In this document: piece by piece, positions 897 to 30,266 of the stretch
How the letters are laid out: the number at the start of each line of letters is the position of its first letter
Numbering within the stretch: position 1 is the stretch's first letter
From: Raillietiella orientalis
Taxonomy: Eukaryota
Length of the DNA stretch: 64,000 nucleotides
Direction of reading: 5' to 3'
Assembly (NCBI GenBank): GCA_036172245.1
Contig: JAYWIR010000009.1
Span: forward strand, 3,906,001-3,970,000
Notes under the pieces: generated by a model
What the model saw: only the letters and a program-made list of their open reading frames with translations
Databases searched by the model: none
What the model was told of the DNA's origin: nothing
Position numbers and translations under genes: made by a program

Positions 897-2786
897 TTAT
901 AAAGTATCAGCAGGACACAATTTAGGTTCTATTATATTTTTCCATTCAGTACACAGAACATTATCTGATGGTGAATTTTCTTCAAATTCCAAATCAAATT
1001 TTCCTGGAATTTTCTTCACAATTTCTTCTGAAAAAAAAAAAAACAAAAATTGGAACATGACAAAATATGATGAAGGCACAATGAGAAAAACTTTGTCAAC
1101 TAATAAAACACATTTCATTTTGTAACATACCTTCAAGCTGTAAGGAAACTTGATCATTCTGTGAATCATAATTAAGAACTTTGGCTTTCTTAAAGTTGGA
1201 TATTTCTGGGGAGTAATTATCACCCAATTCAAGGATCTAAACATTAGTTGTATTATGATCATAATTCTACAACATACCTTAAAGACAATAACATCACCAT
1301 TACGAGGCACCCCTTGTAATGCAGGCAATAAAAGATACTTAGCATCTGTGTCTGCATATGAAGGTGTATTGGCATTCTTGGAAGCTAGCTTAACAGATGA
1401 TGTACTGCCACAGTTATAAAAGACTGTTGAAACATTGGTTTGTTTTTCATTTTCAGCATGAATTTTCAGCTTAACATCCTTCTTAAAAGCTTTCCGATTC
1501 CTGTTTCGAATAAACACTGGTGCTTCAGCTACCATTTTTAACTGAAGCAAATTATTGAACTTCTCATCTGATACAGACTTTACATTAGTGTTTTCATTTT
1601 CACTTAATACAGGGGTTTCTGGAAAATTTCCTGACCTTACAAAACTTGTCTCTTTACAACTAGAATTATCATTATAACAGTCCCCAGAAGTATTGCTAGT
1701 TTCTTTCATTTCCTCATCACTGCTATCAAAGCGTATGTGCTTACTTTGCTTAAGAGCCGTTCCCATTCGCATTGTATAATTTTTATGAGTAAGTAATGGT
1801 TTATTAACTTCACCATTGTAGTTTATGCCAGAAACTGAGGTTTTGTTACTTTTAGTCCTTTTTCTTTTTTTTTGCTTCAAACCCAATGTAAGCAGATCAA
1901 CATCTGTTAACTGCACTGTATTTGTTTTAGCAGACAGATCACTTAATATCTGTTTATTCACATCACTTAATATCTGTTTATTCACATCACTTGAAGCACA
2001 CAAACTATGCTGAGCAACATTAGAAATAAAAGAATCAGATGACTGTGAACGAAATTCTACATGCTTAGTAGCAGCCTTTTGAGGAGATTTAACAACATAT
2101 TCATGATTATGCTTATTTGCATAACAGACATTGTCTTTCCTGGACAGAACACTGTTATTTAACAATTCTTGCTGATGCAACAAACTCTGAGTTTCAGAAG
2201 AATCGTCAGAAGTACAACCAAGAGGGCTAGATGCAGACATCTGTGGTGCCATGGATATAGCACGTTTCCTTGGAAAAAGTTTCAGTGAAAAACTTTTAAT
2301 CACAAGTTTCTAAATTCAAATCATTTACAGTTAAACACAACTGCACATTTAAATAAAATACTTAAAAAACCTAGATCTGTACATACAAAACCACAGAGTG
2401 GAAACTTTACATGCATTAACGTTAAAACATGATTTCTCACTTTCAGGATTTCAACTGTGTAAACAAAATTACTTGAATATATCCTTGTACAAGTAAATAT
2501 TTTGAATGAAGCATTCGTCCGACGAACATAAATGCACAACAAGCAGATCGTTTTCTTTCAAGATTTTCACATCTTCATTTGGCAGCAGGCAATAACCATC
2601 CATATATATGTGAAAGCATTTCGTATGAACATCGAAAATTTCCAAACGATTGAAAACTGTTTTATAGACCTCGATCAGGGTATCATTTTCCTTAAAATGA
2701 ACCAACAACCACTGATACTTTGGTACGATGCTCGACTGATAGGTGAGTTTCAAATCTAGTCGAACTCTTACACAACTCCTCTCCAT
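897..2786 (-). CDS. COIL: Coilin, copy A (predicted exons 2786-2473, 2268-1278, 1236-1131, 1027-897)
   Basis: N-terminus VRVRLD...WLLV...YMDGYCLLPNEDVKILKENDLLV resembles the coilin N-terminal domain. KHIRF motif is present. The spliced C-terminus YLLLPALQGVPRNGDVIVFK|ILELGDNYSPEISNFKKAKVLNYD...GKFDL resembles the coilin Tudor-like domain. GT-AG introns keep the frame. Confidence 0.85.
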
Positions 2787-3035
2787 TGCTCAATGAACGA
2801 CCGAAGCAACACTGAAACACTATCACGGAAATGTTAAATAATAGAAACAGTTCAACAGCTCCCCAAACACCTTTCTACTCATTATTTTCAGTGATTTGCT
2901 GCATAGAATCCATGCGCTCCCTCGGTAGTTCGCCATTAAGTTCCAATCTCCTCTGCCAGTTTCTAAATTCTGTGCTTTTCTGATCAAGTTTTACATTAAC
3001 AAGAAAAAAGAAAAAAAAAAAGGTTCACTAATGAC
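897..3035. repeat. Left arm of coilin inverted duplication (pairs with 9480-~11660)
   Basis: ORFs 2469-2786(-) and 9729-10046(+) are identical (coordinate sum 12515). The match ends at 3035/9480. The 3' part is diverged. Confidence 0.95.
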
Positions 3036-3525
3036 ATGCACAAATTCGAAGCAATAGGATAGAGTGCGTGGTTGTTATTTTTGAAGCGAAACAAAGATAC
3101 GTTTTGCATGTTAAAGTACTTTGAATATCCAGTTTGGGAAACGACACTTTCGAGCTTTTTCACACAGCTTTCCTCTTCAGATTTCGTTTTCATGTTCGAC
3201 ATTATGACCATTTAGTGAGGGGAATGAGCCGAATGGAGATTCCTTTTGAAGGGAAAAATTTTGAATTACTAGTCCAATATTTGAAACCGATGGCTAGCAG
3301 TTGACTCCTGGCATTTCTGAAGGCATCTATTTCTACTCACATGGAATTTACTTGGATGCAAATATATAGAACAAGTAGAAATATGTAGAGCAATAAAATG
3401 AAAGTGATGAGTCAGTAGAAACGCATTTAGAATGGCTTTTTCATTATTTTTCGGCATTCCATCTTAGATGAAATAAGTCTGATTTTGCTATTATCAAAGG
3501 AACTCGATCTTTTTCTGATAAATTA

Positions 3526-4601: not shown

Positions 4602-5600
4602 TGGTTGCAAATGTTCCTGCACTGGCTGCTGACACCGGAAAGAGTTTGTTTACGTGGCACAAGCGCGCAGCCGTCCGCCACCGCGTTCTCCACATCTGTC
4701 CTACCACCCAGTCGAGAAAGCAGTAACGGTTCTATTACTCGTTCCTAGGGATTTGTAGAGTTCCTCTCTACTCCATCTCGTCTCCGTCCTCTTGGCGCGT
4801 TTCCTCGTTCGCTGGATAGCATGATTCTGGACCCGTTCCGAGGATCTTTTTTCGCTTGCTTTTTTCGCACCCCACCCATTCTTCCCCATCTTCCCCGCAA
4901 ACAAATTCCGACTGTCGATGACTGCGCTCTCCGCGTTTGCACCGTTCATTCGAGGATGGGTGAAGAGCTTCTAAAGAAGCCAAGAATAGCGACATAGAAG
5001 TTGATCATTTCTACTACATAATAGAGCGGAAACCTAGGGCATTGCATGGAAATACGGAGACCATTAGCCACGAATTAACGATAACCGATGGCATTCATCC
5101 GAGGTCGGCTTCGATCCGAGTGCGACTGTGAGCTACGAATTGAACCATTTGGCTTCCACCCTCACATGGTGGATTGCAATCCAGTTTCCGGTCGGAAGCA
5201 CTAGTTTCCCGTCTTCAATGGAATCCAGATATGTGCGTGAGCACTGGACGGTAGCTTGAAACGCAACCGGAGCAGGCTGTGTGTATGGGAAACCGCTATT
5301 GCCCCTGGACGTGTGTGCATTCGGAGGAGGAGCAATGGACGGGCGTTTTATCAATACGCCCATGGACGAAAACGCGAGCTTTCAAGTGCAGTCGCGGCAG
5401 ACAGTGTTGTTGGGTTGCACTGCTGAAAGAGAAAGCATTCTTCCCAGTAAGGAGCTGTTGTCGTCCCACATGGAATCGTGAAGAAGTATGAAGGCAAGTA
5501 CCAATTCCCTTCCTGCTTATTTCCAGCACTGGGACCGTGAGAACTGGACCAATCCGCCTCTGGCATGCTTCCTTTTTGCTGAGCTGAAAACCACTCTTCC
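4602..5600 (+). mobile_element. Decayed Ty3/gypsy integrase relic
   Basis: Degenerate motifs in gypsy order across frameshifts: LFTWHKRAAVRHRVLHICPTTQSRK (zinc finger), FPRSLDSMILDPF, LHGNTETI, RYVREHW, VYGKPLLPLDV. Confidence 0.55.
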
Positions 5601-5985
5601 AAATTCCAAGATCTCCATCCTTTGCATCCTTTGCTCCATCCTTGCGTCGTTTGCACGGTTCCTTTTGCGATGCCTCCCGTTGCCCCCGCATCCGCTGAGA
5701 GAAGGTGCTGAGGAAGCCTTCCGTACGGAACCTCCCCCTCCCCGATGACGAAGCCGTGTTTCGCTTCCCACGTTGTGCTGCTGCTGCTCTCTGCTGCGCG
5801 AATGCGCGTTTCGAAAGGGCTGCACGATCACGGAAGTGCGTGAATCCATTTCCTCAGCTTGCGTGACCCGCAATCCAAGAACTTCCTCATGAGCCTCATC
5901 GCATGGCTTTGGGGGCGAATTATTCTTCGTGCGGCGTGCTTCGTGCTACGCGGCTGCTAGCCGGTTCGCACTTTCGGCCAAAGAC
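4602..5985. repeat. Segment copied inverted at 27842-29225 and, truncated, directly at 21607-22442
   Basis: Identical ORF translations at offset 17005 (direct) and coordinate sum 33827 (inverted). Boundaries were read from the sequence. Confidence 0.95.
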
Positions 5986-5988
5986 AGC

Positions 5989-9400: not shown

Positions 9401-9479
9401 TCACGCGGCGCAGCGTGGCAGCGGCAAGGACTCTCCTGACCGAGGTCACGCACTTTATCCTGTTGCGTCGGATTTCTGC

Positions 9480-11660
9480 GTCATTAGTGAACCTTTTTTT
9501 TTTTCTTTTTTCTTGTTAATGTAAAACTTGATCAGAAAAGCACAGAATTTAGAAACTGGCAGAGGAGATTGGAACTTAATGGCGAACTACCGAGGGAGCG
9601 CATGGATTCTATGCAGCAAATCACTGAAAATAATGAGTAGAAAGGTGTTTGGGGAGCTGTTGAACTGTTTCTATTATTTAACATTTCCGTGATAGTGTTT
9701 CAGTGTTGCTTCGGTCGTTCATTGAGCAATGGAGAGGAGTTGTGTAAGAGTTCGACTAGATTTGAAACTCACCTATCAGTCGAGCATCGTACCAAAGTAT
9801 CAGTGGTTGTTGGTTCATTTTAAGGAAAATGATACCCTGATCGAGGTCTATAAAACAGTTTTCAATCGTTTGGAAATTTTCGATGTTCATACGAAATGCT
9901 TTCACATATATATGGATGGTTATTGCCTGCTGCCAAATGAAGATGTGAAAATCTTGAAAGAAAACGATCTGCTTGTTGTGCATTTATGTTCGTCGGACGA
10001 ATGCTTCATTCAAAATATTTACTTGTACAAGGATATATTCAAGTAATTTTGTTTACACAGTTGAAATCCTGAAAGTGAGAAATCATGTTTTAACGTTAAT
10101 GCATGTAAAGTTTCCACTCTGTGGTTTTGTATGTACAGATCTAGGTTTTTTAAGTATTTTATTTAAATGTGCAGTTGTGTTTAACTGTAAATGATTTGAA
10201 TTTAGAAACTTGTGATTAAAAGTTTTTCACTGAAACTTTTTCCAAGGAAACGTGCTATATCCATGGCACCACAGATGTCTGCATCTAGCCCTCTTGGTTG
10301 TACTTCTGACGATTCTTCTGAAACTCAGAGTTTGTTGCATCAGCAAGAATTGTTAAATAACAGTGTTCTGTCCAGGAAAGACAATGTCTGTTATGCAAAT
10401 AAGCATAATCATGAATATGTTGTTAAATCTCCTCAAAAGGCTGCTACTAAGCATGTAGAATTTCGTTCACAGTCATCTGATTCTTTTATTTCCAATGTTG
10501 CTCAGCATAGTTTGTGTGCTTCAAGTGATGTGAATAAACAGATATTAAGTGATCTGTCTGCTAAAACAAATGCAATGCAGTTAACAGATGTTGATCTGCT
10601 TCCATTGGAATTGAAGCAAAAAAAAGGAAAAAGGACTAAAAGTAACAAAACCTCAGTTTCTGGCATAAACTACAATGGTGAAGTTAATAAACCATTACTT
10701 ACTCATAAAAATTATACAATGCGAATGGGAACAGCTCTTAGGCAAAGTAAGCACACTGATAGCAGTGATGAGGAAGTGAAAGAAACTAGCAATACTTCTG
10801 GGGACTGTTATAATGATAATTCTAGTTGTAAAGAGACAGGTTTTGTAAGGCCAGGAAATTTTCCAGAAACCCCTGTATTGAGTGAACGAGAAGAGAATGC
10901 TCATATAAATTCTGCATCAGATGAAACAAGCAATAGTTCTGGGAATTGTTTTTATAATGGTAGTTCTAGTTGTATAGAGACAGCCTCTGTGAGTCCAGGA
11001 AGTTTTCCCAAGAAACCTGTATTTTTTGAAAAAGAAAACAATGCTGATGTCAATTGTGCATTAGATGAAAAGTTCAGTAATTTACTTCAGCTAGAAACAG
11101 ATGCTGATGAACCTCTGTTCATTCAGAAAAAAAATATCAGAAATTTTAAAAAAGATATTACTTTGAAAATTCATGCCGAAAATGAAAAACAGACCAACGT
11201 TTCAACGGTATTTTATAATTGCGGCAGTACATCATCTGTTGAGCTACCATCCAAGAATGTGAATAGCCCTTTGTATGCAAACACAGATGCTAAATATCTT
11301 TTATTGCCTCAATTGCAAGATATACCTCATAATGGTGATGTTGTCTTTAAGGTAAGTTGTAGAATTGTGATCCTAATACAATTCATGTTTAGATCCTTGA
11401 ATTTGGTAATAATTATTGCCCAGAAATATCGAACATTAAGAAAGCCAAGGTTCTTAATTATGATTCACAAGATCATGAAGCTTCTCAAGGTATGTTTCAA
11501 CATGAAATGTATTCTATTAGTTAACGGATTTTTTTAATTATATCTGCATCAGTTCTGGTTGTGATCAACTGTTTTCCTTTTTCAGATGTAAATGTACAGA
11601 AAACTCTAGGAAAATCTGATGCAGAATCTGAAGAAAATTCACCATCGGACAATATTCAGT
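9480..11660. repeat. Right arm of coilin inverted duplication
   Basis: Reverse complement of 3035 downward. It looks identical to about 10490 and is increasingly diverged after that. Confidence 0.95.
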
Positions 11661-11680
11661 GTGCAAATATGGTGCTTTAA
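9729..11680 (+). CDS. COIL: Coilin, copy B (predicted exons 9729-10042, 10247-11351, 11393-11489, 11586-11680); diverged C-terminus
   Basis: Same exon structure as copy A, with intact GT-AG sites and an open spliced frame ending ...SPSDNIQCANMVL-TAA at 11678-11680. It shares about 250 bp of upstream sequence with copy A. Confidence 0.75.
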
Positions 11681-12545
11681 ACTTTTTTTTGTTAAATATT
11701 TGTAATGTAGAAGTATTATCAAAACCATTTATGAGAATGCCACAACTATTGTTATTTAGTCTATTGCTAACTTCCAAAATATTAGTTTGTGCGTTGCTGC
11801 TACTTTCTAGGTAGGTGTCTGGTAAGGAGGAAACGATAAAGTTTTCTGTGTTTTCATTGAAAGTATTCAATTTTGAGTTTGATGTCAGAATTTCTTGAAC
11901 CTTCTCCGATTTTGTAATCAGAGATGTTCCCTTCATTGCATAAATGGATGTAAGAGTAGTTTGAGTACCTTGTGTCAGCATTTTGTTTATTGCAGGGTTT
12001 GTTTTTTTATCACATGCGCTAATCTTTTCTTTTTTCACTTTGAAATCGCTTAAATCATCACTATTACAAAGATCGCCTTTATCAATGTCACCCAATTTAT
12101 TTGCAGCTTCTCTAATCATTTCAGGTACACTCAGCTTGATTTTCTTTTCCGTGTCACTGATATGCACATCCTGCCTTTCGGCGGAATCCAATCCTTTGAG
12201 TAAATCATTTCTGCAAATGTAATTACACAGTTTTTGATAACACTGGATGAGCAATTTCATTTGAACGTTTTCCGTGTAGTCCGAGTAATCCTTGCCACAT
12301 ATGCAACAAGTCTTTGCACAGAGTTTATTATTTCGGCAACTTTTGCAAATGCTATGGTGGCATTTGTTTTCTGCAGGAGAACATGGCTCATCTAAAAGAT
12401 TATCACAAATAACGCATGACAATAACGATCTCAGCGCAGGTATCAACCGCTGAATTTCTTGGATCGTGTGGTTATCATAATCGGGGCTTAAAATCAACCG
12501 ACAAAAGGCAATGTACGAGTTAACTACATTCGCTAGAAACGACAT
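11565..12545 (-). CDS. msl2: Truncated MSL2 copy: RING retained, CXC lost, novel C-terminal tail read from antisense coilin B
   Basis: Identical to the 38287 ORF up to ...LQIFNKK, then KFKAPYLHTEYC...KENS*. The breakpoint is at about 11680, just before the CXC domain. Confidence 0.8.
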   Translation of the reverse strand: MSFLANVVNSYIAFCRLILSPDYDNHTIQEIQRLIPALRSLLSCVICDNLLDEPCSPAENKCHHSICKSCRNNKLCAKTCCICGKDYSDYTENVQMKLLIQCYQKLCNYICRNDLLKGLDSAERQDVHISDTEKKIKLSVPEMIREAANKLGDIDKGDLCNSDDLSDFKVKKEKISACDKKTNPAINKMLTQGTQTTLTSIYAMKGTSLITKSEKVQEILTSNSKLNTFNENTENFIVSSLPDTYLESSSNAQTNILEVSNRLNNNSCGILINGFDNTSTLQIFNKKKFKAPYLHTEYCPMVNFLQILHQIFLEFSVHLHLKKENS

Positions 12546-12749
12546 TTATTGAGAACTACGAGGGCTGTAAACTGTAAGCACGTGCTCTACATCCAATGAT
12601 TAAAATGATACGCTTCACTTTTTGAAAAGGAAACGTATGAAGCGTAAACACAAGGGTACACCGCCGTGCTGCCAGAGTGCCCGCTGCCGTTCCCGCCCGA
12701 ATGGAAGAAAAGATTCCGCTTGCAGGGAATCTTTTCCCTTTGGGCCGGA

Positions 12750-14100
12750 GGGACGTGGCAGCAGCCTTCCAGCGTGCAATGTTCCATTTCCGTTTCTCTC
12801 GCGAAAAGGGCACCTCTTCCGTTTCCACAACACCTCTCCCGGAGGATAACCCTCGTCACTCCCCCCCCCCCCCGCCAACACCATCCATATTTCCTTTCCC
12901 TCCTTCGTCGCGCAAACAGCCACAGCCCCTCCCTCCTCGCAGGCATGCATTCCCGTCCTCTTTGTGCAAAAAGGCACCCCAAGAAACAAACATACACCCT
13001 GCAAGAAGTGCGTGCATCGCATCGACGCACTCTGGAAATGTCCATCCCGACAGCGGGCCCGCTCGACGGAAAAACACCAAGCGCCTGCTTCCTTTCCCCT
13101 CCGGGGCAATCGGAAAACTGCATTCATCCGCAAATCGTGTGTTCATTTGGCAACGATCCTGGCGGAACGCATCCCAGGAAGCAGAAGGAGCAGCGCGGCG
13201 GCCGCACATTCCTCACAAGAAAACGGTTGGCTTGGCTTCCCCAAAGAGAACGAACCCTGCTGCAGTCTCCAAAGTTCCCGGATTCCTCGGGCACTTCCTC
13301 CGCTTTTCCGACAACCGTTTCGTCTGGCTGCTCGACCCAGGATGACCTTCGCTTGCGCCAAGCGCCGCTTTCCTCCCAAGCCACTGCCGGGAAGCAAACG
13401 TCGCAACGGGAAGACACGCAGCACACCTCGGAAAGCCGTGGCGCTTTGCACATTCGACTTGCGGCCGACGAAAGAGTGGATCATCCACCTTCTTCCATTC
13501 CGTACGGCCTCTCCGATTCCAGACGAGCGACTCGATTACCGGTTGAGGCTGCACATTTCATCCTCCGGCCATTTGCGTTTCCATGGCTGTCCCACCAGAG
13601 GGACACGGAAGGAGAAGCACCTCGGCGCGTGCAAACCGCAGGCCTGCAGGGAGAACAGAAAACGCGCCTTCCGCTTGGGCTGCCGACGGTCCATTCTCGG
13701 CGGAAAGCGACCAGGATGCCCGTCTTCCCGGGCAAAAAGTGTGTAACTTTTCGTTTCGGGGAGCGCGCCATCGTTCGCATCGCACCATTTCACGTGAAAG
13801 TGCCTCCCAACGTAGTGGAAACTCGTAAAGAGGGGGTGGGTGGTGAGAAATCGACAGTCTCGACGAAAGCAACCCTCTCCCCCAACCCCGTCGTTTCCCG
13901 GTGATCCAAAGTAGCCCTTTACGACACGTACCGCACTAATAAAGATGTGCAGCAAGTTTGCAAAAGGAATTGACTCTGCAATTAGGAAAGCAATTTACCT
14001 GCTCGCCAAAAGTCTCAGGGAAACAATTCTCCTGTGGGGGAGGGAACTGGGGGGTGGGGGTGGGGGGAAGGAAAGAAAGAGAAAGCAATGCACCGCCGAC
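12750..14100 (-). mobile_element. Decayed non-LTR (RTE-like) reverse transcriptase relic; mirrored at ~36730-38080 (+)
   Basis: Ordered motifs: DCRFLTTHPLFTSFHYVGRHF, WRLQQGS (GxxQG), TRFADEC (FADD), AVGMDISRV...VCFLG. Confidence 0.5.
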
Positions 14101-15099
14101 AGGAGTGGAAAACGCGGAAACGCAAACATCACGAACGAATGCTCGAGTTGCCAAAGGCCGGTTCCTCTTTTTTCCGTCCCCAATCTTTTCAAAGAGTCGT
14201 TTCCTTCACTGCGCTGCGGATGCACGAAGCGAAATGAAAATGTCAACGGGATGTTTGAATCGAACAGGGAAAACTCGAGGGACAGCCCCTCATCCCGCAA
14301 AACAGGACAGACAGCGCTGTTTCGCTATCCCCATGATAGTCCGTTGCTGCTGAACATAATGGAAAGGGAAATAGAGACGATAAGAATCCAAATCAAGCTT
14401 GCCGTTAGATAGGCAACTGGACGGCATCCGTTTCTGCTTCAAGATGGCGTCTTCGACGGATCCTCTCTTGCTTTCCAACATCATGGTGACGGAAATCACC
14501 CGTCCGCGTGCAAGGAAACAGAAAGACCCCCCTTTCCTTCGCTGAGGATTCCGTTCCAACAACCACAAGCAAGCAAGCAAGCAAGAAAGCAAGCAAGAAA
14601 GAAAGAAAGCAAGAAAACGAGGAACAACAACCCACGGGTGGTGCATTCGTGGTTTTGGAATTCTCCTTCACGATGGGAGCTTCCCATTCTTTTCCCTTCC
14701 AAATCGCCGCAGATGGCTTTTCAGTCGCAGCACACAATGCAACCACTGAACGCCCCACCGCAGACGACTGGCAGTAGCAACGGGAGCAGCCCTGTGAAGA
14801 TGGTTACTTCCGTCTATCCTGAGACACGAACGGCACCTCGACCTACCTCACGTGACGAAGCCACGGAAGAGGGGAAAAAAGATGCTGTATGATCATCATT
14901 CCGTTCAGGATGAACCGAATCTGTCCACGAACGGGAACGGAAAATGGTAAGCGAAGCTTCACCTGGAGAAATCTACCACCAGCCCGGAGTGGTCGTCGAA
15001 GCAGCAGCAAAAGACAGAGAGGGAACGGGGATCCTTTCCCGATCAGCCTTTGAACCTCTGTGGGAAAGGCAGACAATTCGTGAGAAGCAGGAAGAAATG

Positions 15100-15870
15100 A
15101 TCACGAGCGATTCCGTCCAACGCTCGGTGGCTGTGCGGTCTCGTGGCAGCGGGCTGCGGCTTCCCGGTAGGCATGTCCACGATCAAGGCGTGGAAAACCC
15201 TCCGAGCCCTCCCCCCCAACCACGCACAGCGGTTTCCCTTCTTCCTCTCGCCATGATTTGTTTTTGTCTTTTTCCTTTTCCTACGCCCTTCCGTGGCTGC
15301 CTCGCATGCATCCTCCGATGCCAGCGAATGCGTCTCTCGTTAGAAACGGACGGGCGTTGCTGGCCGTTTGGTTTCCCACGTCGCAGGGTTCCCATCCCGC
15401 GGCCCGCCTCGTTGATCGTTCGCACATGCCGCACGATGCAGAAATTCGTTCGCCCCGAAATTTCAGGAAATGCAGAGGAGGAATTTGGCGCGACTTTCCA
15501 CTGTGCAGCACACTTTCCAGCGAATGCGATTCGTTCGTTTGTCGTTTCTTCGATGCGAAACTTCGCCCGGCCGACGCGTCCACTTCGGACTCGTTCTTTG
15601 CCCGCCGCGGCAAACGGCGTTCCGCAGCAACGTCGAATCGGATCCTTCGACAGAGTCGTCGATCCATCTGGCGAAACGGCGTCATGCCCAATGCACTTCT
15701 TGCACAGTGAGGTCCGTCCTTCGAGCAGAACGTTTCCTTCTTTGGCCGACATGAGGCAGTTCCATCAGGCGGCCACGTCGCGTCGCGCGTTGCCTTTGAC
15801 CGTCGCCACGCAGCAGATGCACCCTTCACCGAAGAAGATTCCTTTCCGATTGCTTCAGGTGCTCATCGGA
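15100..15870 (+). mobile_element. Possible decayed LTR-element integrase relic; mirrored at ~34960-35730 (-)
   Basis: CILRCQR, PEISGNAEEEF, PAAANGVPQQR (PQxNGxxER), PSPKKIPFRLL. Confidence 0.35.
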
Positions 15871-15899
15871 ATACGATCGTCTGCCAATTGGGATTCGAC

Positions 15900-16900
15900 G
15901 AGCGCTTCCTTCGCAAGTCGCCTCGCTGCCTCACTCTGGATGATCTTCCAGGAGGAAGCGCTTTCCACGAAAGGATTCCATTTTTTTGGACTTTTTGGCA
16001 AACTCCGCATCCGTCTGCAGCGCAACCAGACGAGCTGGTGCGAATCACACTACCTTGCATCCATTTGAATGTGGCGGTGGTGGTGACCGAGCCGCGAGTC
16101 TTGGATATGCGTTTCATGAAAAGCCCCGGGATGAAAGGCGCGTGCGCGCACCATGGCAAACGCGAAAGAATCGCAAGAGGAAGAAACGTCCGCGCACATG
16201 AGAAAGGGTTGGGCACGGAAGCATCCGTTTCGAACTTGGCGAGGTCGATTCGGGTACGGCAAGGCTTGTCCTCGTCCGCCTCCACGTTCTTCCGCTTTCG
16301 AAGGTACGCTGCATCCGGCACACCCGGCTCGCAACCTTCGTTATGGAATCGGCTCGCTGTGCCGATGAGAATGGTCTTCGCACCGAGTTGACCGCGGAGC
16401 AAATCTTGGCGCGTCTCCTAGCCGAATCGGCGATTGCTGAAAGATTGTTTCAATCTCACTCATCCTTGCAAGGCATTTCTTGCTTCCTTGGCAACCAACA
16501 AGAGCGAAGCCGCTGCCGCAGGCTTGCAACTCACCTCGCCCCGCACGTCCAGCAACGAAGGACGCTTTGCCAGCCGCCGCAGGTGCGCAAAGGCCATCAT
16601 CGCATGCGTAACCACGCAGCGCTGACCACTTTTCTCGAACGATCACGTTCCCAATATGGTGCGAAACGTGCGGGACGCGCGGATGCGAGGCCGTGCAAGC
16701 AAGCGCTTCCTCGCGCAACGACTTCGCCGTGCGTCGAACCGGCCGTGACCTTGCGCGCTGCTCGCGGCAAGGTCACGGCGGCGAAACGACGACGAAGCGA
16801 ATGGCCTCGTTGCGCTGTCGGAGCTGGTGCTCAATCACCGTGGTGTCCACGGTGATTGCAAGGTTCAGCATGCCTCTCGCCGGATTCGCCATGTCGCGGA
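15900..16900 (+). mobile_element. Possible decayed non-LTR RT relic; mirrored at ~33930-34930 (-)
   Basis: SGTPGSQPSLWN (cf. GxPQGSxLxPxLWN) followed by AAAAGLQLTSPRT (cf. GLxLNxxKT). Confidence 0.35.
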
Positions 16901-17177
16901 TGTCGTGGGTTTAGCGGGCCGGAGTTTTCCGCCTGAAACCGAGGGATCCATTCGCTTGGGGGGGGCGGGCACAAGGAAGGAAAAGTAGCTGGGAGGCAGG
17001 ATCAAGCTCCGTGGAGTTTGCCCGGCATCACCCTGCCGCGCGCGTGCGCTTTCCCTCAGGGGCCGTTCGCGGTCAAGGGCAAATGCGGAAGTTCTGGAAC
17101 AGGGGCGCATCCGACGCGAGCGGAAAAGCAGTGTGCCCTGCTGCTGCTGCTTTTCTCCGTAAAGGGAAAGGGAAAGG

Positions 17178-17209
17178 GAAGAAGAAGAAGAAGAAGAAGA
17201 AGAAGAAGA
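17178..17209 (+). repeat. (GAA)n microsatellite; mirrored at ~33623-33654
   Basis: Direct read of the sequence. Confidence 0.95.
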
Positions 17210-17399
17210 CTTTGACCCGCATCGCCTCCCCGGTAAGGACGCTCGTCCTCGCCATCGCGGCAATGCGTTCGTTGGAAGGAATCGAACGTTGACTGCGGAA
17301 CAGGGGTGCTCCCGACTGTCCACTCTGCTTTTCTGCCTGGGGCTCGCCAGCGGGAACTGCGTAGTCTGCAACCGCCACGGGATATCTCTTTCCCGCAAC

Positions 17400-19050
17400 G
17401 CAGGACGATCGCTGGAGAACTTTTGTCGATTGGGACATCCAGGGACTGCCGCCGTGTGTAGCTTTGAGCCCGAGGACCCCGCGGGGATGCGTTCCGATGG
17501 GAGGCCGGCCATCGGCGGAAAACGAGCGAGCACGCTGTGCAGCTCGCGCATCCGCGTGCGAAAGAGAGCGAATTGCAAGTGGCCTTGAGGATGAGCGTGC
17601 GAGGCTGAATGGAGAAGAGGAAGAACTTGGCGACCACCTGCAACACCTGAAATGAAGAGCAGCCGAGCGGTTGCGTGCCTTCGAGCTCTTTCGGAACCGC
17701 TCACTCCTTGTGGTCCAGCCGGGCGCGGGATTCAGCACGCCAACGGCGCTTCGGTCGGCCGGCCGAGTTCGGTTGCCGGTTCGACTCTGCGAGATGCATC
17801 GCGTAGACAGTCTCTTGCTTTTTCAATTTTCCTCGAAGAGGAAAAAAGTCCGACCCTCGCGGACGACGCCTCCGTCTCGTTCTGCTGCTTTTCGACCAGC
17901 GTTCGCCGCCGCCACATTCGATGCCCGAGGAAAACGCGCTCATCTGTTCGGGCGTACTTCAGCCACTCGAGGAAAGGACTTTCGAGTAAAGTTCGCTGGA
18001 CCATCGCGTCAGCTGTCCTTCTTCAGCAAGGTCGTGTGGTCGCAGTCACGCCTGCAACGACTCAGCCCCATCATCCCGAAAGACGAACTGCCAGTTCTTT
18101 CGCCTCGGCTTGGACGAGCGCACGCTACCATCTCCGTGCGGAGCAGCAACGCGGCTGCAGGAAGGCGGCAACGGAAGCAAAATGGCACGACAAAATGGCC
18201 GCAAAGATGTGGGGATTTATCCGCGTCCCCACGGTGGAATAGTTCGCTTTCACGGCCGCTTTCGCGAGCGCTGCGTGCCTCTTTTCCGACCTCGGCACCA
18301 GCTGCCCACCTTCCCGAACCGCCGGTCGCCTGCCTCCCTAGGGGAACGCCGGCTCCGGAGACCGATTGAGCTCGGAAACGGAAACGCGCCCACCGTCTCG
18401 AGGTGTGCGCGATCCGTGCTCGAAAGGAGGGGAAGGGGGGGGGGGGAAGGCAGTTTCGGGATCCTCCTCCGCAAGGGGCCATCCAAGGCAACCAGCGAGT
18501 CGATGCCACCTTCCCGAGCTGACGGGATGCCGAAGGAGGAGCACCCTTTTCTTCTTCCCGTTGTGCCGGTCGTCCCGCATCGCTTGGTGGTTACGATTGC
18601 ATTGCGAGGTCGCTTCCGTTTGCCATGAACCCCGCCCTGTTTTTTTTGCACACCGTTGCGTGCGTTCCTCGTTCCTGCATGGCTCACGCGTGCGTGGATT
18701 TGCTTGGATCGAACGGGAAGAGACTGTCGTGTCCTCCGCTGCATTTCGGGCTTCCGTCAAGCAAGATGAGGACTCGATTTTCGAGGCTGCCCGTTTCCAA
18801 CGCGCACCCTTCTTCAAACTTGCTTTCCCCCCCAACCCGATCCACGCTCCTGGCTCTCGACTGGCCGTGGAGAACTGCCCGCGTTTCGGGTGGGTGGGTG
18901 GCTGCGGCCGCGCGAATCGAAAACCACGTGGATTCGTTCATCCCTTCCCGAATTTATGGATATCTGCGGTCGACTCCTCTCCGATTCTCGGCAAGATGCA
19001 CGGCGTCGTCGGTCGGTTCGTGAATCTTCAGCTGGTGGTAGCACCTCGCG
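17400..19050 (+). mobile_element. Decayed Ty3/gypsy pol relic (RT-RNase H-integrase); mirrored at ~31780-33430 (-)
   Basis: DHLQHLK...ERLRAFEL (RT), IASAVLLQQGRVVAVTPATTQPHHPERR...AWTSARYHL (RNase H), RFQRAP...NPIHAP...WISAVD (integrase), in the expected order. Confidence 0.55.
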
Positions 19051-20565
19051 CAGTGGCGCGGAGGCCCCTTTCCGTCCCGAGTGCGCAGGCGCGTGTCCGT
19101 TGCTTTGCGTGCACCCGCAAGCAAGTAGAGGACGTCCGTGCCGGCTGCCGTCGTGCTTTCTTCGCCGAGCAGCCGTCGGCTGCAGCCGCGATTCGTCGAC
19201 GGACGAGTTCGTGACCTGCGGACTTGCTCGTCCTCGACGCTGCCGTGTTTGAAGTTCCCGGATTGCGCGATGCGCCCGGACTCGGATGAGCCGCAGGGAA
19301 GACGAGGATTGGCACGCGGGTGGGCATCCGCGGTCTCGTTCGACGGCACGGTGCTCCTTGCGTGCTCCTTGAACTCCAGCACCCACACCGTGTTATGGCA
19401 CGTGACGGTGATTCGCTGCTCATCGTCGCCCGCGTGCAAGCGATGCAGTTCCGATTCGTGCAAGCGTTTGCTCCCGAACGACTGGAACACGAAGTGGATG
19501 GTTTGCAGACATCGCTGGTTGTCGAAGTTCCAAATTTTCAGCACCTGGAGATGGAGAACGTGGACGTGAGATGTTCGGGCGGGCGGCGAGGTTTCTCGAG
19601 AGACGTGACCCGTCCTCAGGTTCGAGGAAAGGGAAAGGAAAAGACCGCGAAATTGTGCGAAATTCCGCAAGTTTCCGTGCGTCCGCAAACGCCCGGTCCA
19701 CCAGCCGACGTCTTTCCTGCGTGCGCTCCCCTTCTCTCTTCCCGCTGCTCTCTTGGCAACTCACCGGACTACAAGGGAGTCGTCACTTGACCGCGCGGAG
19801 AGCCGGGAGATTGTGGGCGGAAATCCGGCAACCGCGAGAATGCAGATTCGTTCGGGGAGGTTTGGGCACGCTCGTTCCCGGTCCAGGGAAGCGGTCTGCG
19901 CACTCCTTCTGCCGTCTTCGTTCCCGAAACCCTAGCCGGAAGGGTTGCCGACCGGAAGCGTGCAGTCCGAGGAAAGCGGCTTGTCTGCGCGCCGGTGCAC
20001 GAAAACACCGCGCTAACCCCGGAGAATATTTTGTGCCCCGGAGGCGACGATGCAACCGATTCGCTTGGATGGATGAACCGATGGGCCGATGGGACGTCCG
20101 TCAGGCATCGCATGCGGATGGTGACCACTTTGGAAGAATTTTGGGAGAAGAAGAAAAATTTGGAAGAAAGTTCGTGAAGTGGTAGGCGTGCTCTCTTCCT
20201 TGTGTGGACGGCCTCGCCCGGTACGTTCGTCCGCCTAGTTCGGGCAAGAAGAAGCATCGTGGCGCATCGAAGGCGCCAGATGGGAGCGGTTCGTTGCCCC
20301 TTGCATGCCGCCGTGGCTAACGTGCAAGAAGTGGTGGCTTCGAACAACACTGCATGGCCATGCGTCCCACGTCCGCCGCGCTCTGCGAGCATCGCTTTCT
20401 GCTGCGCAATCCTCGTGCGTGCGTTCTCGGGATGAACGACGCAAAACGCCAAATAGGTGCACGCGCGTCCGCGCACGTGCGCGCAGCGTACGGAGGTGCA
20501 GTTTCCCTTCGAGCATCTTCGCCCGAAACGATTCGGAAAGCACAAGATACGTTCTTTCTTCTCTT

Positions 20566-20608
<43 letters not shown>

Positions 20609-23600
20609 TGTCGGTGTGGGAATTCGCAGTGCGAATTGAACAAGGACGACGAGTGAGCGTGCGCGACCGAAGGATTCCATCCTTCCTTTTTTTTTTTTTT
20701 CTCCTTTTTTATGTTTTCCCGTCTCCTTCGCAAAGACGTGCTGCGATGAGCTTTTCCTTCGCGCCAGAAGATCGGAACTCGAATGGCTCTCGGTGGATCG
20801 ACCTTGACGGTCTGCAAAGAATCGCCGGAAGGCGAGAAGGGACCAGGGGAATCTGCACGTGCGGGGGGCTTCTTCTGTCCGGGTTTCGATGAGCATCCGA
20901 AGTGGCGAGCAACTCTTGACCCGAAGGATCCGAAAATCCGAACCGAATGCAGCCCGAGGCACGGATTCGGCGAATGGCGTGGGATGCCAGGAAGAGCTGC
21001 AACGAGGCCTTCAGTAAGGACTGATTTTCCTTTGCATGTTCGTCTCGTGGGGTACACGGAAGGAAGGCCATTTTCTTACCGCCCACGAGAAAGTCTTCCC
21101 ATCATCCATTCATCCGCACATCCACATTTGCGTACAGGCGTTGTACAGGAAACGCACTACCAAGTAAGTGCGAGACGGTGCGCGCATGGAAACGCACCTA
21201 CTCGGATACGCCAGAAAGGATCTCGGATCTCCGTTTGTTTTTCGTGTCGCCTTGCTCGCGTGCGTTCCCTGCTGCTGCACGTGATCATGCAATCCGTGAG
21301 GCGTGCTCCGTGATCTCGGTCCACTGGGGAATCTGCGTTGCCTGGAAATTGGGTTCGCGATGAGAATCCTTCGCCGCTGGGCTTGTTCGCACGGGCGGGT
21401 TCGTTCGTGTCATCCTGGCTCGGTGCCGCCGGTTCGTGCGTATCCACGAAACGCTCCCGAATCAAAGAAAGGAATACCGAAATGTTAAAGCAACGAAACG
21501 CCCTTTCCAACGTCGTCGGGAAGATCTCGCAGCTTGCGAGCGAAGAAATCCGAGCGGTTCCGCGAGTGCTGGGATCGTCGTCGATGGATGGTGATTTGTG
21601 ACGGGTTGGTTGCAAATGTTCCTGCACTGGCTGCTGACACCGGAAAGAGTTTGTTTACGTGGCACAAGCGCGCAGCCGTCCGCCACCGCGTTCTCCACAT
21701 CTGTCCTACCACCCAGTCGAGAAAGCAGTAACGGTTCTATTACTCGTTCCTAGGGATTTGTAGAGTTCCTCTCTACTCCATCTCGTCTCCGTCCTCTTGG
21801 CGCGTTTCCTCGTTCGCTGGATAGCATGATTCTGGACCCGTTCCGAGGATCTTTTTTCGCTTGCTTTTTTCGCACCCCACCCATTCTTCCCCATCTTCCC
21901 CGCAAACAAATTCCGACTGTCGATGACTGCGCTCTCCGCGTTTGCACCGTTCATTCGAGGATGGGTGAAGAGCTTCTAAAGAAGCCAAGAATAGCGACAT
22001 AGAAGTTGATCATTTCTACTACATAATAGAGCGGAAACCTAGGGCATTGCATGGAAATACGGAGACCATTAGCCACGAATTAACGATAACCGATGGCATT
22101 CATCCGAGGTCGGCTTCGATCCGAGTGCGACTGTGAGCTACGAATTGAACCATTTGGCTTCCACCCTCACATGGTGGATTGCAATCCAGTTTCCGGTCGG
22201 AAGCACTAGTTTCCCGTCTTCAATGGAATCCAGATATGTGCGTGAGCACTGGACGGTAGCTTGAAACGCAACCGGAGCAGGCTGTGTGTATGGGAAACCG
22301 CTATTGCCCCTGGACGTGTGTGCATTCGGAGGAGGAGCAATGGACGGGCGTTTTATCAATACGCCCATGGACGAAAACGCGAGCTTTCAAGTGCAGTCGC
22401 GGCAGACAGTGTTGTTGGGTTGCACTGCTGAAAGAGAAAGCAGGGTCGTTGGGACACTGCGACTACCTTCATATTCAGAACATTCATTATGAAGATACTT
22501 TGCATAAAAGGTCAACAAACGGACCCAAAACGATATTTTTGTATGGAATGCGAAAGCTATGCAGTAGAGTAGTAGTTGTCTATTCTGTGGGAGTCTCAAT
22601 AGTAAATGTAATAAAAGTGTTGTATTATAGGGACGAATAAAGATTAAATGTTGCAATGATCTTTGCATTGATCTTTGAATTGCTTCTGAACACATCTTGA
22701 CATCTGCACCCTGTCAAAAGGAGAGGAAAAAAAAAAAGGCTCTTTCGAAGTGATTTTGATCTCGGAGCTGGAGGGCAAACGTCCCCATTTTGGCTCTAGG
22801 GAAATTAACGTAGGGTGGCACGCTCTGATCGCTTACCCGCTCTTTGTCGATGCTCATGAAAATGTCCCTTTCTTCTAGCACGGCGACGTCGGAAATCTGG
22901 TCTCTGTGGCCGTGGACGAAGTGGGTCGGTCTCTTCTGGACGAAGATGTTCCAGATTCGGAGAACGGCGTCATAGCCACCGGAGACGACGGCCTTCCTGC
23001 TCGCATGGAAGGCGAAACAGGAGGCGCCCTGGGTAGAGACGTCGCCCTTGGCGGTTCTCCTTTCTTCCTTCCTTCCCGTCTCACCTGCTCGATTTTCATG
23101 ATGTATCGCAGGTCCTCCGAGTGCAGCCTCGTGAAGACGAGTGAATCTGACGGATTCCGGCTGCAGCTGATCATCATGTTGCTTTCTTCCGCGAAGTGGA
23201 TCCTCTCTACTCCCGAAGAATGCACTCTGGGTAGGTACCTGCAACCAGCCGGGTTGTTTTGGGAAAGGAGCTGTGCAAGAGTGATCGCCAATCCAAAAGA
23301 GGGTCGCAAGGCACCTTCCAGCTGATGGTGGTGGCATCGGCTGCGCCGCAACCTCCGGGGACTTTGGAAGGAATGCCGCTGACCCCGAACAGCCCGATCC
23401 CGCCTTTGATGTCCCCCCAGCAGAAGCGAACAGCTTTCGGTCCCAGCCTCTCCTCCGCCAACGGGGACGTGTCCAGACAAAGAGGTATGGCGGGCATGCT
23501 GACGATCACGTGGCGCCTCGGCGAAGCATCTTCCAGCACGTGGAGGAGGCGCATCTCACCCAAGGAAGTGGCGTACGCCAGCATCTCGGCTCCGCGCAGG

Positions 23601-23900
23601 TACACGGCGTCTGTGATCCAGCAGCGCTCGGAAGCAGCTGCGCCAGCTCGACCGTTGTGTTCCAGGGCCACTCGTTTCAGCAGGACCGCCCTTCCGTCAA
23701 AGAAAGACGCTATCCCCCTCCTCGTGACCGCCAGATACACCTCAGGAACGAACCGCACTTTGAAAACCCTCAGGATGGAACTGTCCTGAGGCCAATCTTC
23801 AAGCTGCTACGCTTGTTCCCCGCTCACCTCGGAGAGAAACAGCTTGCTCTTCGATGTGTGCCTGAGCAGTCCCCTGCTGGCGCCGCATTGCCGCTGCATC
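18954..23900 (-). CDS. WDY / WDR49-family WD40 protein (exons ~23900-23828, 23785-23315, 23270-23085, 23028-22837, 19544-?); 5' and 3' ends uncertain
   Basis: Phase-0 GT-AG introns of 42, 44, 56 and 3292 nt join an open frame: WITDAVYL...FCWGDIKGGI...RVHSSGVERIHFAEESNMMISCS...GASCFAFHASRKAVVSGGYDAVLRIWNIFVQKRPTHFVHGH...SIDKER|VLKIWNFDNQRCLQTI. This resembles the WDR49/EFCAB8/WDY family as I recall it. Confidence 0.7.
20568..20603 (+). repeat. (GTC)n microsatellite; mirrored at ~30229-30264
   Basis: Direct read of the sequence. Confidence 0.95.
20850..22442 (+). mobile_element. Decayed Ty3/gypsy RNase H-integrase relic inside the WD40 gene intron; mirrored at ~28230-29980 (-)
   Basis: LDPKDPKIRTECSPRHGFG (TDASxxGxG), YTEGRPFS (YLEGRPF), SCRLARVRSLLL (GRLARWxLLL), ERFRECWD, then the same integrase motifs as at 4602-5437. 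Confidence 0.55.
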
Positions 23901-24439
23901 CCTTCAGGCAGGCGGGAAGTGGGCCAAAGCGGCCAGGATCCCGACGTCCGCAATCATCGAGCGGCCTGGATGGCAAAGAGGCTTGGGGAAAACACCAGGT
24001 CGTCTGAGTGTGCGCACAGAGAAGAGGTGGTGAGGGCGCAGGTGGCTGGCGGCTTTCTCAGTGTGGTTGTGAGATGCTTCTGGAGATGTGCAGGAAAACT
24101 GGGAAAGGAAAAAAAAATCCATGGCAACGAATCCTCTCCGATGGCAACCCGTGGTTCCGGCTCCTCCCCCCTCGGAGGCAGAGCACCGCGATCCAGATTA
24201 GATGCCCCGAGATTAGAGAAGTTTCCCTCGAGTCCGAACAGCAACCCGCGTTGGCGGCCGTGGGGCTGCTGCGCGCAGCATTGAGCGTCGAGGGTTCGAA
24301 TCCCGCCCGGGGAAAGGGTCGACACCGAGAAAATGGGGGGGAGGGTGCGTCGTGGGTTGACAGCCCCCGCTCCCTGGAAAGATGACGCTGGTTGGCCTCT
24401 GCGGGTGCGGCCCTGGTGGACACCGGATGCCCTCTTCGA

Positions 24440-28389: not shown

Positions 28390-30223
28390 TGCTTTCTCTT
28401 TCAGCAGTGCAACCCAACAACACTGTCTGCCGCGACTGCACTTGAAAGCTCGCGTTTTCGTCCATGGGCGTATTGATAAAACGCCCGTCCATTGCTCCTC
28501 CTCCGAATGCACACACGTCCAGGGGCAATAGCGGTTTCCCATACACACAGCCTGCTCCGGTTGCGTTTCAAGCTACCGTCCAGTGCTCACGCACATATCT
28601 GGATTCCATTGAAGACGGGAAACTAGTGCTTCCGACCGGAAACTGGATTGCAATCCACCATGTGAGGGTGGAAGCCAAATGGTTCAATTCGTAGCTCACA
28701 GTCGCACTCGGATCGAAGCCGACCTCGGATGAATGCCATCGGTTATCGTTAATTCGTGGCTAATGGTCTCCGTATTTCCATGCAATGCCCTAGGTTTCCG
28801 CTCTATTATGTAGTAGAAATGATCAACTTCTATGTCGCTATTCTTGGCTTCTTTAGAAGCTCTTCACCCATCCTCGAATGAACGGTGCAAACGCGGAGAG
28901 CGCAGTCATCGACAGTCGGAATTTGTTTGCGGGGAAGATGGGGAAGAATGGGTGGGGTGCGAAAAAAGCAAGCGAAAAAAGATCCTCGGAACGGGTCCAG
29001 AATCATGCTATCCAGCGAACGAGGAAACGCGCCAAGAGGACGGAGACGAGATGGAGTAGAGAGGAACTCTACAAATCCCTAGGAACGAGTAATAGAACCG
29101 TTACTGCTTTCTCGACTGGGTGGTAGGACAGATGTGGAGAACGCGGTGGCGGACGGCTGCGCGCTTGTGCCACGTAAACAAACTCTTTCCGGTGTCAGCA
29201 GCCAGTGCAGGAACATTTGCAACCAAACCGTCACAAATCACCATCCATCGACGACGATCCCAGCACTCGCGGAACCGCTCGGATTTCTTCGCTCGCAAGC
29301 TGCGAGATCTTCCCGACGACGTTGGAAAGGGCGTTTCGTTGCTTTAACATTTCGGTATTCCTTTCTTTGATTCGGGAGCGTTTCGTGGATACGCACGAAC
29401 CGGCGGCACCGAGCCAGGATGACACGAACGAACCCGCCCGTGCGAACAAGCCCAGCGGCGAAGGATTCTCATCGCGAACCCAATTTCCAGGCAACGCAGA
29501 TTCCCCAGTGGACCGAGATCACGGAGCACGCCTCACGGATTGCATGATCACGTGCAGCAGCAGGGAACGCACGCGAGCAAGGCGACACGAAAAACAAACG
29601 GAGATCCGAGATCCTTTCTGGCGTATCCGAGTAGGTGCGTTTCCATGCGCGCACCGTCTCGCACTTACTTGGTAGTGCGTTTCCTGTACAACGCCTGTAC
29701 GCAAATGTGGATGTGCGGATGAATGGATGATGGGAAGACTTTCTCGTGGGCGGTAAGAAAATGGCCTTCCTTCCGTGTACCCCACGAGACGAACATGCAA
29801 AGGAAAATCAGTCCTTACTGAAGGCCTCGTTGCAGCTCTTCCTGGCATCCCACGCCATTCGCCGAATCCGTGCCTCGGGCTGCATTCGGTTCGGATTTTC
29901 GGATCCTTCGGGTCAAGAGTTGCTCGCCACTTCGGATGCTCATCGAAACCCGGACAGAAGAAGCCCCCCGCACGTGCAGATTCCCCTGGTCCCTTCTCGC
30001 CTTCCGGCGATTCTTTGCAGACCGTCAAGGTCGATCCACCGAGAGCCATTCGAGTTCCGATCTTCTGGCGCGAAGGAAAAGCTCATCGCAGCACGTCTTT
30101 GCGAAGGAGACGGGAAAACATAAAAAAGGAGAAAAAAAAAAAAAAGGAAGGATGGAATCCTTCGGTCGCGCACGCTCACTCGTCGTCCTTGTTCAATTCG
30201 CACTGCGAATTCCCACACCGACA

Positions 30224-30266
<43 letters not shown>

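Follow-up and report, generated by a model that had tools for sequence, protein, structure and literature searches.

A truncated, RING-only copy of msl2 terminating a near-perfect inverted duplication: a probable, evolutionarily unproven gene fragment

The palindromes of primate sex chromosomes undergo arm-to-arm gene conversion, and inverted duplication/triplication rearrangements are known as DUP-TRP/INV-DUP. Truncated forms of MSL2 that keep the RING finger and lose the CXC domain are described from Drosophila cells and predicted for human disease alleles. In Drosophila cells, engineered MSL2-deltaCXC keeps the interaction with MSL1, and about 75% of the cells show a delocalisation of MSL2 as well as of endogenous MSL1 (PMC2879509). 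This provides a precedent for the premise on which the initial annotation of the present locus was built, i.e. that an MSL2 without CXC keeps its binding to MSL1 and can mislead it. Human truncating variants of MSL2 which escape nonsense-mediated decay are predicted to result in proteins keeping the MSL1-interacting part and losing CXC; with the stop located in the last coding exon, decay is not expected (PMC11267526). Here, we describe a truncated msl2 copy of comparable anatomy, which lies next to an intact msl2 gene in a stretch of 64 kb (the window). The coordinates of all features are collected in Table 1.

Table 1. Positions of the features discussed, counted from the first base of the window
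Feature	Position	Strand	Remarks
Truncated msl2 ORF, 326 aa	11565..12545	-	residues 1-287 parental, tail 288-326, stop 11565-11567
MSL2 RING finger, codons 42-110	12216..12422	-	PF16685; human MSL2 fragment alignment
Candidate poly(A) signal, ATTAAA hexamer	11533..11538	-	27 bases past the new stop
Candidate poly(A) signal, AATAAA hexamer	11305-11300	-	260 bases past the new stop
Tail-to-tail junction	11665..11684		coilin homology stops at about 11662-11671; msl2 homology exact from 11684
Coilin A, longer copy	951..3070	-	Coilin_N in exon 1
Coilin B	9447..11677	+	older, partly homogenised copy; stop TAA 11675-11677 inside the junction
Segment C, third copy of the arms' inner end	4602..5985		two matches to arm ends
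Arm A, 10.76 kb	11680..22442		msl2 5' coding part and 9.9 kb of GC-rich upstream DNA
Spacer, 5.9 kb, about 60% GC	22443..28389		non-palindromic bar about 150 bases
Arm B	28390..39151		belongs to the parental msl2 locus
Intact parental msl2, 462 aa, one open frame	38287..39675	+	RING 42-110, CXC 301-347

The truncated reading frame and its parent

The open frame of 326 amino acids claimed in the initial annotation is present, and so is its identity to MSL2 over about 287 residues, as BLASTP matches residues 1-287 of the intact 462-aa ORF without any gap. The first differing residue is 288, where IFNKK is followed by KFKAPY in the copy and by SSRKSY in the parent. There are zero coding differences between the msl2 copy and its parent, the first 862 coding bases of the parent being matched exactly, and the identity of both is far beyond the level expected by chance. 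The sole Pfam family in the 326-aa ORF is zf-RING_10 (PF16685, E 9.5e-19), covering residues 42-110 and profile positions 1-69 of 70, and CXC (PF16682) was not found in this ORF by Pfam at E values up to 0.01. The 462-aa parent shows the RING at the same residues and in addition MSL2-CXC (PF16682, E 5.6e-16) at 301-347. The proposed truncation ahead of CXC is thereby borne out, the distance to the domain being 13 residues by the Pfam match instead of the roughly 15 given previously. Residues 6-114 of the short ORF can be aligned with positions 5-114 of chain 4b7y_C, a human MSL2 fragment (116 aa; PDB 4b7y/4b86), at E 2.7e-24, and we take 4b7y to be the human MSL2 fragment in complex with MSL1. 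An AlphaFold2 model of the truncated protein (mean pLDDT 54.8) predicts confident helices at residues 2-50 and 94-157 followed by an unstructured region at 157-299, according to which the linker is disordered, and places a low-confidence helix in the new tail.

The 39-residue tail (288-326) is new with respect to the parental msl2 sequence. It was correctly assigned to the antisense strand of coilin B, since positions 11565-11680 on the minus strand run opposite the last coilin B exon (about 11592-11677); additionally, the tail is antisense to 27 bases of the intron preceding this exon. Within the three minus-strand frames of 9700-11680, runs of at least 37 codons before a stop occur at 10% of the positions, so that an open tail of 39 codons does not exceed chance expectation (P about 0.10). 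The tail sequence hinges on a run of eight A residues in the copy versus seven in the parent, as a run of seven would end the frame at 301 aa.

The intact copy can be identified as the parent by its neighbourhood. Pfam TPPII and S8 domains are found at 41771-43769, the TPPII gene being located downstream of intact msl2 on the minus strand. Neighbouring locus tags for msl2 and TPP2 are also present in Trichomalopsis (TSAR_010600 and TSAR_010597) and in Eretmocerus (QAD02_001907 and QAD02_001906), and in Cephus both genes are on one contig. As the intact copy adjoins TPPII, as in some wasps, we regard it as the parent; the truncated copy sits away from this position. The nearest homologs among the matches listed share 29-34% identity across 73-79% of the length, and no exact match to either the truncated or the intact protein was found in a collection of 15 billion proteins. 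Scanning metagenome contigs for relatives with intact MSL2 resulted in 216 pattern matches, 0 of which were confirmed by tblastn.

The inverted duplication and the surrounding segment cluster

The setting of the copy had been overlooked in the initial annotation: it forms the end of a near-perfect inverted duplication which itself lies within a cluster of near-identical segments. Positions 11680-22442 are the reverse complement of 39151-28390 (10,766 aligned columns, 99.94% identity), resulting in a palindrome-type structure of inverted arms with more than 99.9% identity separated by a unique spacer. Internally, the arms differ by five substitutions at arm A positions 16957, 17854, 18419, 18489 and 21605, none of them coding and with no indel among these five differences, corresponding to a divergence of about 0.05%; at the junction edge one mismatch at 11679 and a difference in the length of the T run at 11683 are added. 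The upstream DNA of about 10 kb described as common to both msl2 copies is present, comprising 9,897 bases 5' of the ATG. Pfam gave no sign of another gene in the arms: of 108 ORFs of at least 110 aa from the GC-rich arms and spacers, one had any match, a weak, sub-threshold WD40 in the spacer. Rfam returned 0 matches at gathering score in the whole window.

Within the spacer, 24469-24618 and 26110-26277 show inverted homology of about 75% roughly in register with the axis. A fully palindromic spacer was considered and rejected: two adjacent matches of about 75% alone reach E values of at most 1e-6, with the best control match at E 0.64. A third spacer match, at E 1e-5, lies at a great distance from the register.

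Further near-identical stretches in the region are segment C and two stretches of 100% identity, one of 1 kb in coilin and one of 836 bases. Segment C is 100% identical to 21607-22442 in direct orientation and matches 29225-27842 in inverted orientation with one mismatch, the sub-segment at the inner arm end being present in three copies of which one is inverted relative to the other two. A fold-back hairpin of 28 bases lies beside the end of the 1.4-kb segment C, and inspection by eye of the segment's ends revealed neither terminal inverted repeats nor a target-site duplication as marks of a transposon. Coilin B is short of about the last 20 codons relative to coilin A. Over about 1 kb (9558-10533) both coilin copies share 100% identity, falling to about 78% further 3', where coilin B shows dS 0.41 and dN/dS 0.31; moreover, coilin B carries an in-frame internal duplication of 144 bases with the frame intact. 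Coilin B is distinct from coilin A, which makes the left flank of the junction a genuine locus of its own. The mosaic of identity between both coilin copies implies that gene conversion acts in this cluster, so that the msl2 arms, too, might be of old origin and have been homogenised.

At the junction, a run of eight T residues on the plus strand (A8 on the msl2 coding strand) is followed by exact msl2 homology. A long shared repeat is lacking there; besides the T/A run, the junction holds a few bases whose origin is uncertain. The insertion of an arm into a complete coilin B was rejected, as no 3' remainder of coilin is detectable past 22442 (best local score 22 versus a shuffle maximum of 28). 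With the 3' end of coilin B absent past the inner junction, a simple recent insertion fails to explain the structure.

Origin and status of the copy

Our preferred reading, to which we assign a probability of about 0.6, is that the truncated msl2 is a real but evolutionarily unproven gene fragment made by a complex duplication. It shows the features of a young partial duplicate, i.e. a near-identical copy, a break after codon 287, a chimeric end and a parent in the ancestral position. The RING-only anatomy of the copy was described correctly at first, while the context of an inverted duplication points to a by-product of rearrangement, or at worst to an error of assembly, rather than to an evolved paralog. 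A 10.76-kb segment, bounded by a point 9.9 kb upstream of msl2 on one side and by codon 287, inside the single coding frame, on the other, occurs a second time in inverted orientation, and the broken msl2 end is joined tail-to-tail to the 3' end of the older coilin copy, itself about 20 codons short. This arrangement may have arisen by replication template switching, which would fit a junction without long repeat, segment C and the hairpin. The alternative route would be a tandem duplication of a head-to-head coilin-msl2 pair with a subsequent inversion, which would at once yield both truncated copies and the joint between their tails. Either the fragment is very young or arm-to-arm gene conversion has held it identical, and most likely it is a neutral or mildly harmful by-product. 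If the arms are old and homogenised, the copy would have persisted long enough for a function to be conceivable.

The fragment is probably transcribed like msl2, because the whole upstream region was copied, and its putative transcripts would end at the ATTAAA or AATAAA hexamer within the coilin B antisense sequence. The predicted product comprises the MSL1-binding N-terminal helices and the RING, a disordered linker and an unselected tail of 39 residues, and would be devoid of CXC and the C-terminal region. If stable, this product might compete with full-length MSL2 for MSL1, resulting in MSL complexes without CXC-guided DNA targeting. With two equally driven promoters, the truncated form could make up as much as half of the MSL2 pool, which seems costly if it interferes.

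That the copy is an assembly artefact, the upstream part and the 5' half of msl2 having been assembled twice, e.g. because of two haplotypes or of chimeric long reads, and misplaced in inverted orientation beside coilin B, appears rather unlikely to us; the animal would in this case lack the truncated ORF. Five differences in 10,760 bases are in the range of ordinary heterozygosity, the three further near-identical segments make the region hard to assemble, and one of the junction differences is a homopolymer length, a typical long-read error. However, the window contains 0 N, and two false joins would be needed, at 11680 and 22442, neither of which falls in a repeat whose length could misguide an assembler. 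The differences between the arms are substitutions and not indels, and this, together with the lack of a repeat beyond the T run, supports real sequence over a repeat-driven misjoin. Spurious duplications of haplotypes usually lie in direct orientation or on different contigs, and the inverted layout around a unique spacer of 5.9 kb is unlike them.

We see a small chance that the copy is a selected RING-only MSL2 regulator, which tunes MSL-MOF targeting or H4K16 acetylation by binding to MSL1, by acting as a free E3 ligase, or by both, its identity being maintained by gene conversion. The ORF, the upstream region and the predicted MSL1-binding module are intact, and the copy would be old and persistent if the junction has the same age as coilin B, given the dS in the 3' part of the latter. 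The redistribution of MSL1 by deltaCXC MSL2 in fly cells (PMC2879509) agrees with such a role, and truncated duplicates antagonising their parent are known, as reported for SRGAP2C (PMC5435084; 10.1101/596940). Nevertheless, recency or gene conversion explains the parental identity without selection acting on the copy, and the tail is no longer than chance allows. RING and CXC are present together in all 120 MSL2 homologs listed, out of 378 found, and no natural RING-only MSL2 paralog or gene was found in the open-access literature searched.

A similarly slim prospect is a scenario in which the coilin-msl2 joint is old, having arisen with coilin B, and the palindrome has been kept by gene conversion, so that the RING-only MSL2, driven by a full msl2 promoter, would be a long-standing competitor for MSL1, possibly accompanied by coilin B antisense RNA across the 5' coding part of msl2; if true, it would represent a natural tuner of MSL-MOF targeting outside Drosophila. 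We attach hardly any weight to an antisense or small-RNA locus, in which read-through from coilin B over the msl2 fragment generates dsRNA or siRNAs acting in trans on msl2 and coilin: the stops are on opposite strands with the frames overlapping by about 110 bases, the plus strand is free of AATAAA or ATTAAA from the coilin B stop to 12599, i.e. just past the fragment's ATG (12545), coilin B has lost its own 3' end so that its transcripts may run through the fragment, and the antisense RNA would match the exactly shared 862 bases of the parent, but this support is purely structural, with a poly(A) scan covering the hexamers AATAAA and ATTAAA, and the lack of Rfam matches in the window is uninformative for such loci.

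Returning to a real gene fragment as the preferred reading, the locus would, if also expressed, show a partial-duplicate gene very early in its history, which could antagonise its parent. Its main value at present is practical, as our analysis flags a complex, near-identical inverted duplication that annotators will probably call a second msl2 gene and for which read-level validation is needed.

Comparison with described systems

The locus resembles primate palindromes and DUP-TRP/INV-DUP rearrangements in having inverted arms of 10.8 kb with more than 99.9% identity, a unique spacer and one sub-segment present three times. The arms are, however, much shorter than those of classical palindromes, and the coilin mosaic makes arm-to-arm conversion plausible at most. 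Compared to full-length arthropod MSL2 orthologs, the N-terminal helices and the RING are alike, whereas the copy is devoid of CXC and the C-terminal region. The human truncating variants are de novo disease alleles of a single gene, interpreted mainly as haploinsufficiency (PMC11267526), whereas here an extra copy lies beside an intact gene. The likeness to SRGAP2C-type duplicates is that a segmental duplication truncates a gene while the interaction module stays, which makes an antagonism of the parent possible; SRGAP2C is reported to be expressed, fixed and functionally tested (PMC5435084; 10.1101/596940), whereas the msl2 fragment is described here from its sequence.

The engineered Drosophila MSL2-deltaCXC and the CXC point mutants represent the same kind of protein, which retains the RING for MSL1 binding but has lost the CXC for DNA binding (PMC2879509). 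These constructs retain the C-terminal Pro/Bas region and were assayed in a species with MSL2-driven X-chromosome dosage compensation (PMC2879509), whereas the present copy loses everything past residue 287, belongs to a distant host and is described here from its DNA sequence. Engineered fly constructs and human disease alleles are so far the only cases in which the two halves of MSL2, the RING for complex assembly and CXC for DNA targeting, are separated; provided that the present copy is real and expressed, it would constitute a natural experiment of this kind.

Two msl2 reading frames and the parent locus

We find two msl2 frames in the window, an intact one of 462 aa (the long copy) and one of 326 aa (the short copy), the latter being a real ATG-to-stop frame, as the initial annotation had proposed, with a stop codon immediately ahead of its ATG. 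Both are identical without gaps over residues 1-287 by BLASTP, matching the extent claimed, and then diverge (...IFNKK/KFKAPY in the short copy versus ...IFNKK/SSRKSY in the long copy). The sole Pfam match of the short frame is the MSL2 RING (PF16685, E 9.5e-19, residues 42-110); the long frame carries the RING and the MSL2 CXC domain (PF16682, E 5.6e-16, residues 301-347). The cut had been placed about 15 residues ahead of CXC: its position before the domain stands, and the measured distance to the CXC match is 13 residues. Residues 6-114 of the short copy align (E 2.7e-24) with the human MSL2 chain of PDB 4b7y/4b86, covering positions 5-114 of its 116 residues; we take these entries to be the MSL1-MSL2 complex. 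The search for MSL2 homologs gave 378 matches, the best having 29-34% identity across 73-79% of the query, and RING and CXC are both present in all 120 MSL2 homologs among the matches listed (120 of 378). The host is taken to be an insect that has no near relative in the collections. Neither copy has an exact record in the protein collection by exact look-up, a scan with the intact MSL2 found no relative in metagenome contigs, and searches of the open-access literature, with the excerpts covered, gave no natural RING-only MSL2 paralog.

The long copy is, as judged from gene order, the parent, because its TPPII-adjacent position is conserved. The exons downstream of it match Pfam TPPII and Peptidase_S8 (highest identity of a TPPII exon 61% among the matches listed, 120 of 927 at E up to 1e-20). 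In the homolog source names, msl2 and TPP2 bear neighbouring locus tags, TSAR_010600 and TSAR_010597 in Trichomalopsis and QAD02_001907 and QAD02_001906 in Eretmocerus, and both genes lie on one contig in Cephus, the adjacency being common to the window and some Hymenoptera.

Coordinates of features in the window
Feature	Position	Strand	Basis
Coilin A	about 951-3070	-	Coilin_N exon
Segment C	4602-5985
Fold-back hairpin	5989-6048
Coilin B	9447-11677	+	Coilin_N exon
msl2, short copy	11565-12545	-	ATG-to-stop ORF
Arm A	11680-22442
Spacer	22443-28389
Arm B	28390-39151
msl2, long copy	38287-39675	+	ORF
TPPII	41771-43769	-	Pfam, single ORFs
Phosphomannose isomerase	47632-48156	+	Pfam, single ORFs
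Helicase_C protein	55296-56021	-	Pfam, single ORFs
PH-domain protein	57036-57515	-	Pfam, single ORFs

The inverted duplication and its joint with coilin B

By self-comparison of the window, arm A is the reverse complement of arm B over 10,766 aligned columns at 99.94% identity. A base-by-base comparison of the arms gives five substitutions (arm A 16957, 17854, 18419, 18489 and 21605), all upstream of the msl2 coding part, and the outer junction adds a single mismatch (11679) and a T run of unequal length (11683), so that the two frames share 9,897 upstream bases, bearing out the roughly 10 kb claimed, and the first 862 coding bases. No gene besides msl2 was recognised in the arms by Pfam among ORFs of at least 110 aa, and of 108 such ORFs from the GC-rich DNA of arms and spacers just 1 had any match at E up to 0.001, a weak WD40 hit below the cut-offs that lies in the spacer. 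GC content is 55-62% in the arms and 31-40% in the genes, switching within ~50 bases of the msl2 ATG. Blocks of 50-65% GC at 4000-10000, 12600-38200 and 59000-62000 lie between the AT-rich genes (31-40% GC), with all six frames open and without recognisable domains. The 5.9 kb spacer is non-palindromic apart from ~150 bases of inverted homology (24469-24618 against 26110-26277, ~75% identity). These sit within ~100 bases of register with the palindrome axis and may be left over from a longer palindrome of greater age. Close to the arm A breakpoint, the spacer holds a single WD40-like repeat (22839-23067, minus strand; Pfam E 1.8e-6 to 1e-4, every match under the curated cut-offs), which may be a relic exon.

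At the outer junction (~11680) the msl2 copy breaks off and is joined tail-to-tail to coilin B, the second coilin gene, whose last exon (~11592-11677) tracks coilin A until ~11662-11671 and terminates with ...NIQCANMVL-stop where coilin A runs ~20 codons further. A few bases of uncertain source and a T8 run separate the end of coilin homology from exact msl2 homology (11684). On the msl2 strand this run is A8 in the short copy versus A7 in the parent, and A7 would close the short frame at 301 aa. The 39-residue tail is indeed antisense coilin B, comprising that last exon and 27 bases of the preceding intron; its length is unremarkable, since a stop-free run of at least 37 codons follows 10% of positions in the minus-strand frames around the junction. 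No long repeat that could mislead an assembler lies at the outer junction or the inner junction (22442), and we regard an assembly artefact as the explanation of this layout as unlikely.

Coilin divergence and the age of the duplication

Identity between coilin A and B is 100% across ~1 kb (9558-10533), falls to 91-99% in the 300 bases that follow and is ~60-87% from there up to the junction; coding dS is 0.03 in the 5' section and 0.41 in the 3' section (dN 0.13, dN/dS 0.31). This mosaic, together with the 3' values, suggests coilin B being an old copy under constraint with a 5' part recently homogenised by gene conversion, which evidently acts in this cluster of near-identical segments. Within coilin B, 144 bases are duplicated in tandem and in frame (10782-11070, two copies 78% alike), and coilin A carries an additional 24-base repeat unit (1938-1992). 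Segment C, which lies between coilin A and coilin B, is a third copy of the arms' inner end: it matches 21607-22442 at 100% (direct), shows one mismatch to 29225-27842 (inverted) and continues 548 bases beyond the arm A breakpoint, and so derives from the arm B side. Just beyond its right end, a 28-base fold-back hairpin has a 4-base loop whose orientation is opposite to that in arm B, and both together look like a template-switch scar.

Two readings of the age stand side by side. The arms may be young, as suggested by three copies at ≥99.9% identity and by abrupt arm ends with nearly no diverged homology past them; by a rough estimate that takes a mutation rate typical of insects, ~0.05% divergence would correspond to tens of thousands of generations. 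Alternatively, the joint may be of the same age as coilin B, with the arms held identical by conversion: coilin B homology stops exactly at the joint, its missing 3' end was not found on the far side of the arm, and a head-to-head coilin-msl2 pair, duplicated in tandem with one breakpoint near the coilin 3' end and another mid-msl2, would yield precisely such a tail-to-tail joint in a single step, a subsequent inversion giving the present layout. Either way, the fragment's identity to its parent requires no selection on it, because recency or conversion each accounts for it.

Predicted product and status of the fragment

Transcription of the fragment like msl2 is likely because the complete upstream region was copied; downstream of the new stop lie the hexamers ATTAAA (11538-11533) and AATAAA (11305-11300), and nonsense-mediated decay would be unlikely because no downstream intron is expected. 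In the AlphaFold2 model (mean pLDDT 54.8, 31-sequence alignment) the helices at 2-50 and 94-157 are confident, whereas the zinc core is poorly modelled, residues 157-299 are disordered and the tail forms a helix of low confidence. In the predicted protein, MSL1 binding should persist and CXC-guided DNA binding would be absent.

These data support, at a probability of about 0.6, a real partial msl2 duplicate arising from a complex inverted duplication, plausibly transcribed though no established gene. The observation of the initial annotation is confirmed, and its interpretation is supported in part. A RING-only regulator maintained by selection appears distinctly improbable. Coilin B transcripts might run antisense through the entire fragment, since the plus strand has no AATAAA or ATTAAA from the coilin B stop (11677) to 12599. 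An antisense or small-RNA locus is very improbable.

The suggested interference with MSL1 appears reasonable as a statement of how the fragment would work. In Drosophila cells, CXC-less MSL2 still interacts with MSL1 and pulls endogenous MSL1 into dispersed foci in ~75% of cells, according to excerpts of PMC2879509. For human MSL2 truncating variants whose sole loss is CXC, escape from decay is predicted, and the authors suggest, in the excerpts of PMC11267526, a malfunctional complex as a possible extra factor beside haploinsufficiency. As a genomic structure, the msl2 fragment would be a partial gene duplicate within a segmental duplication.
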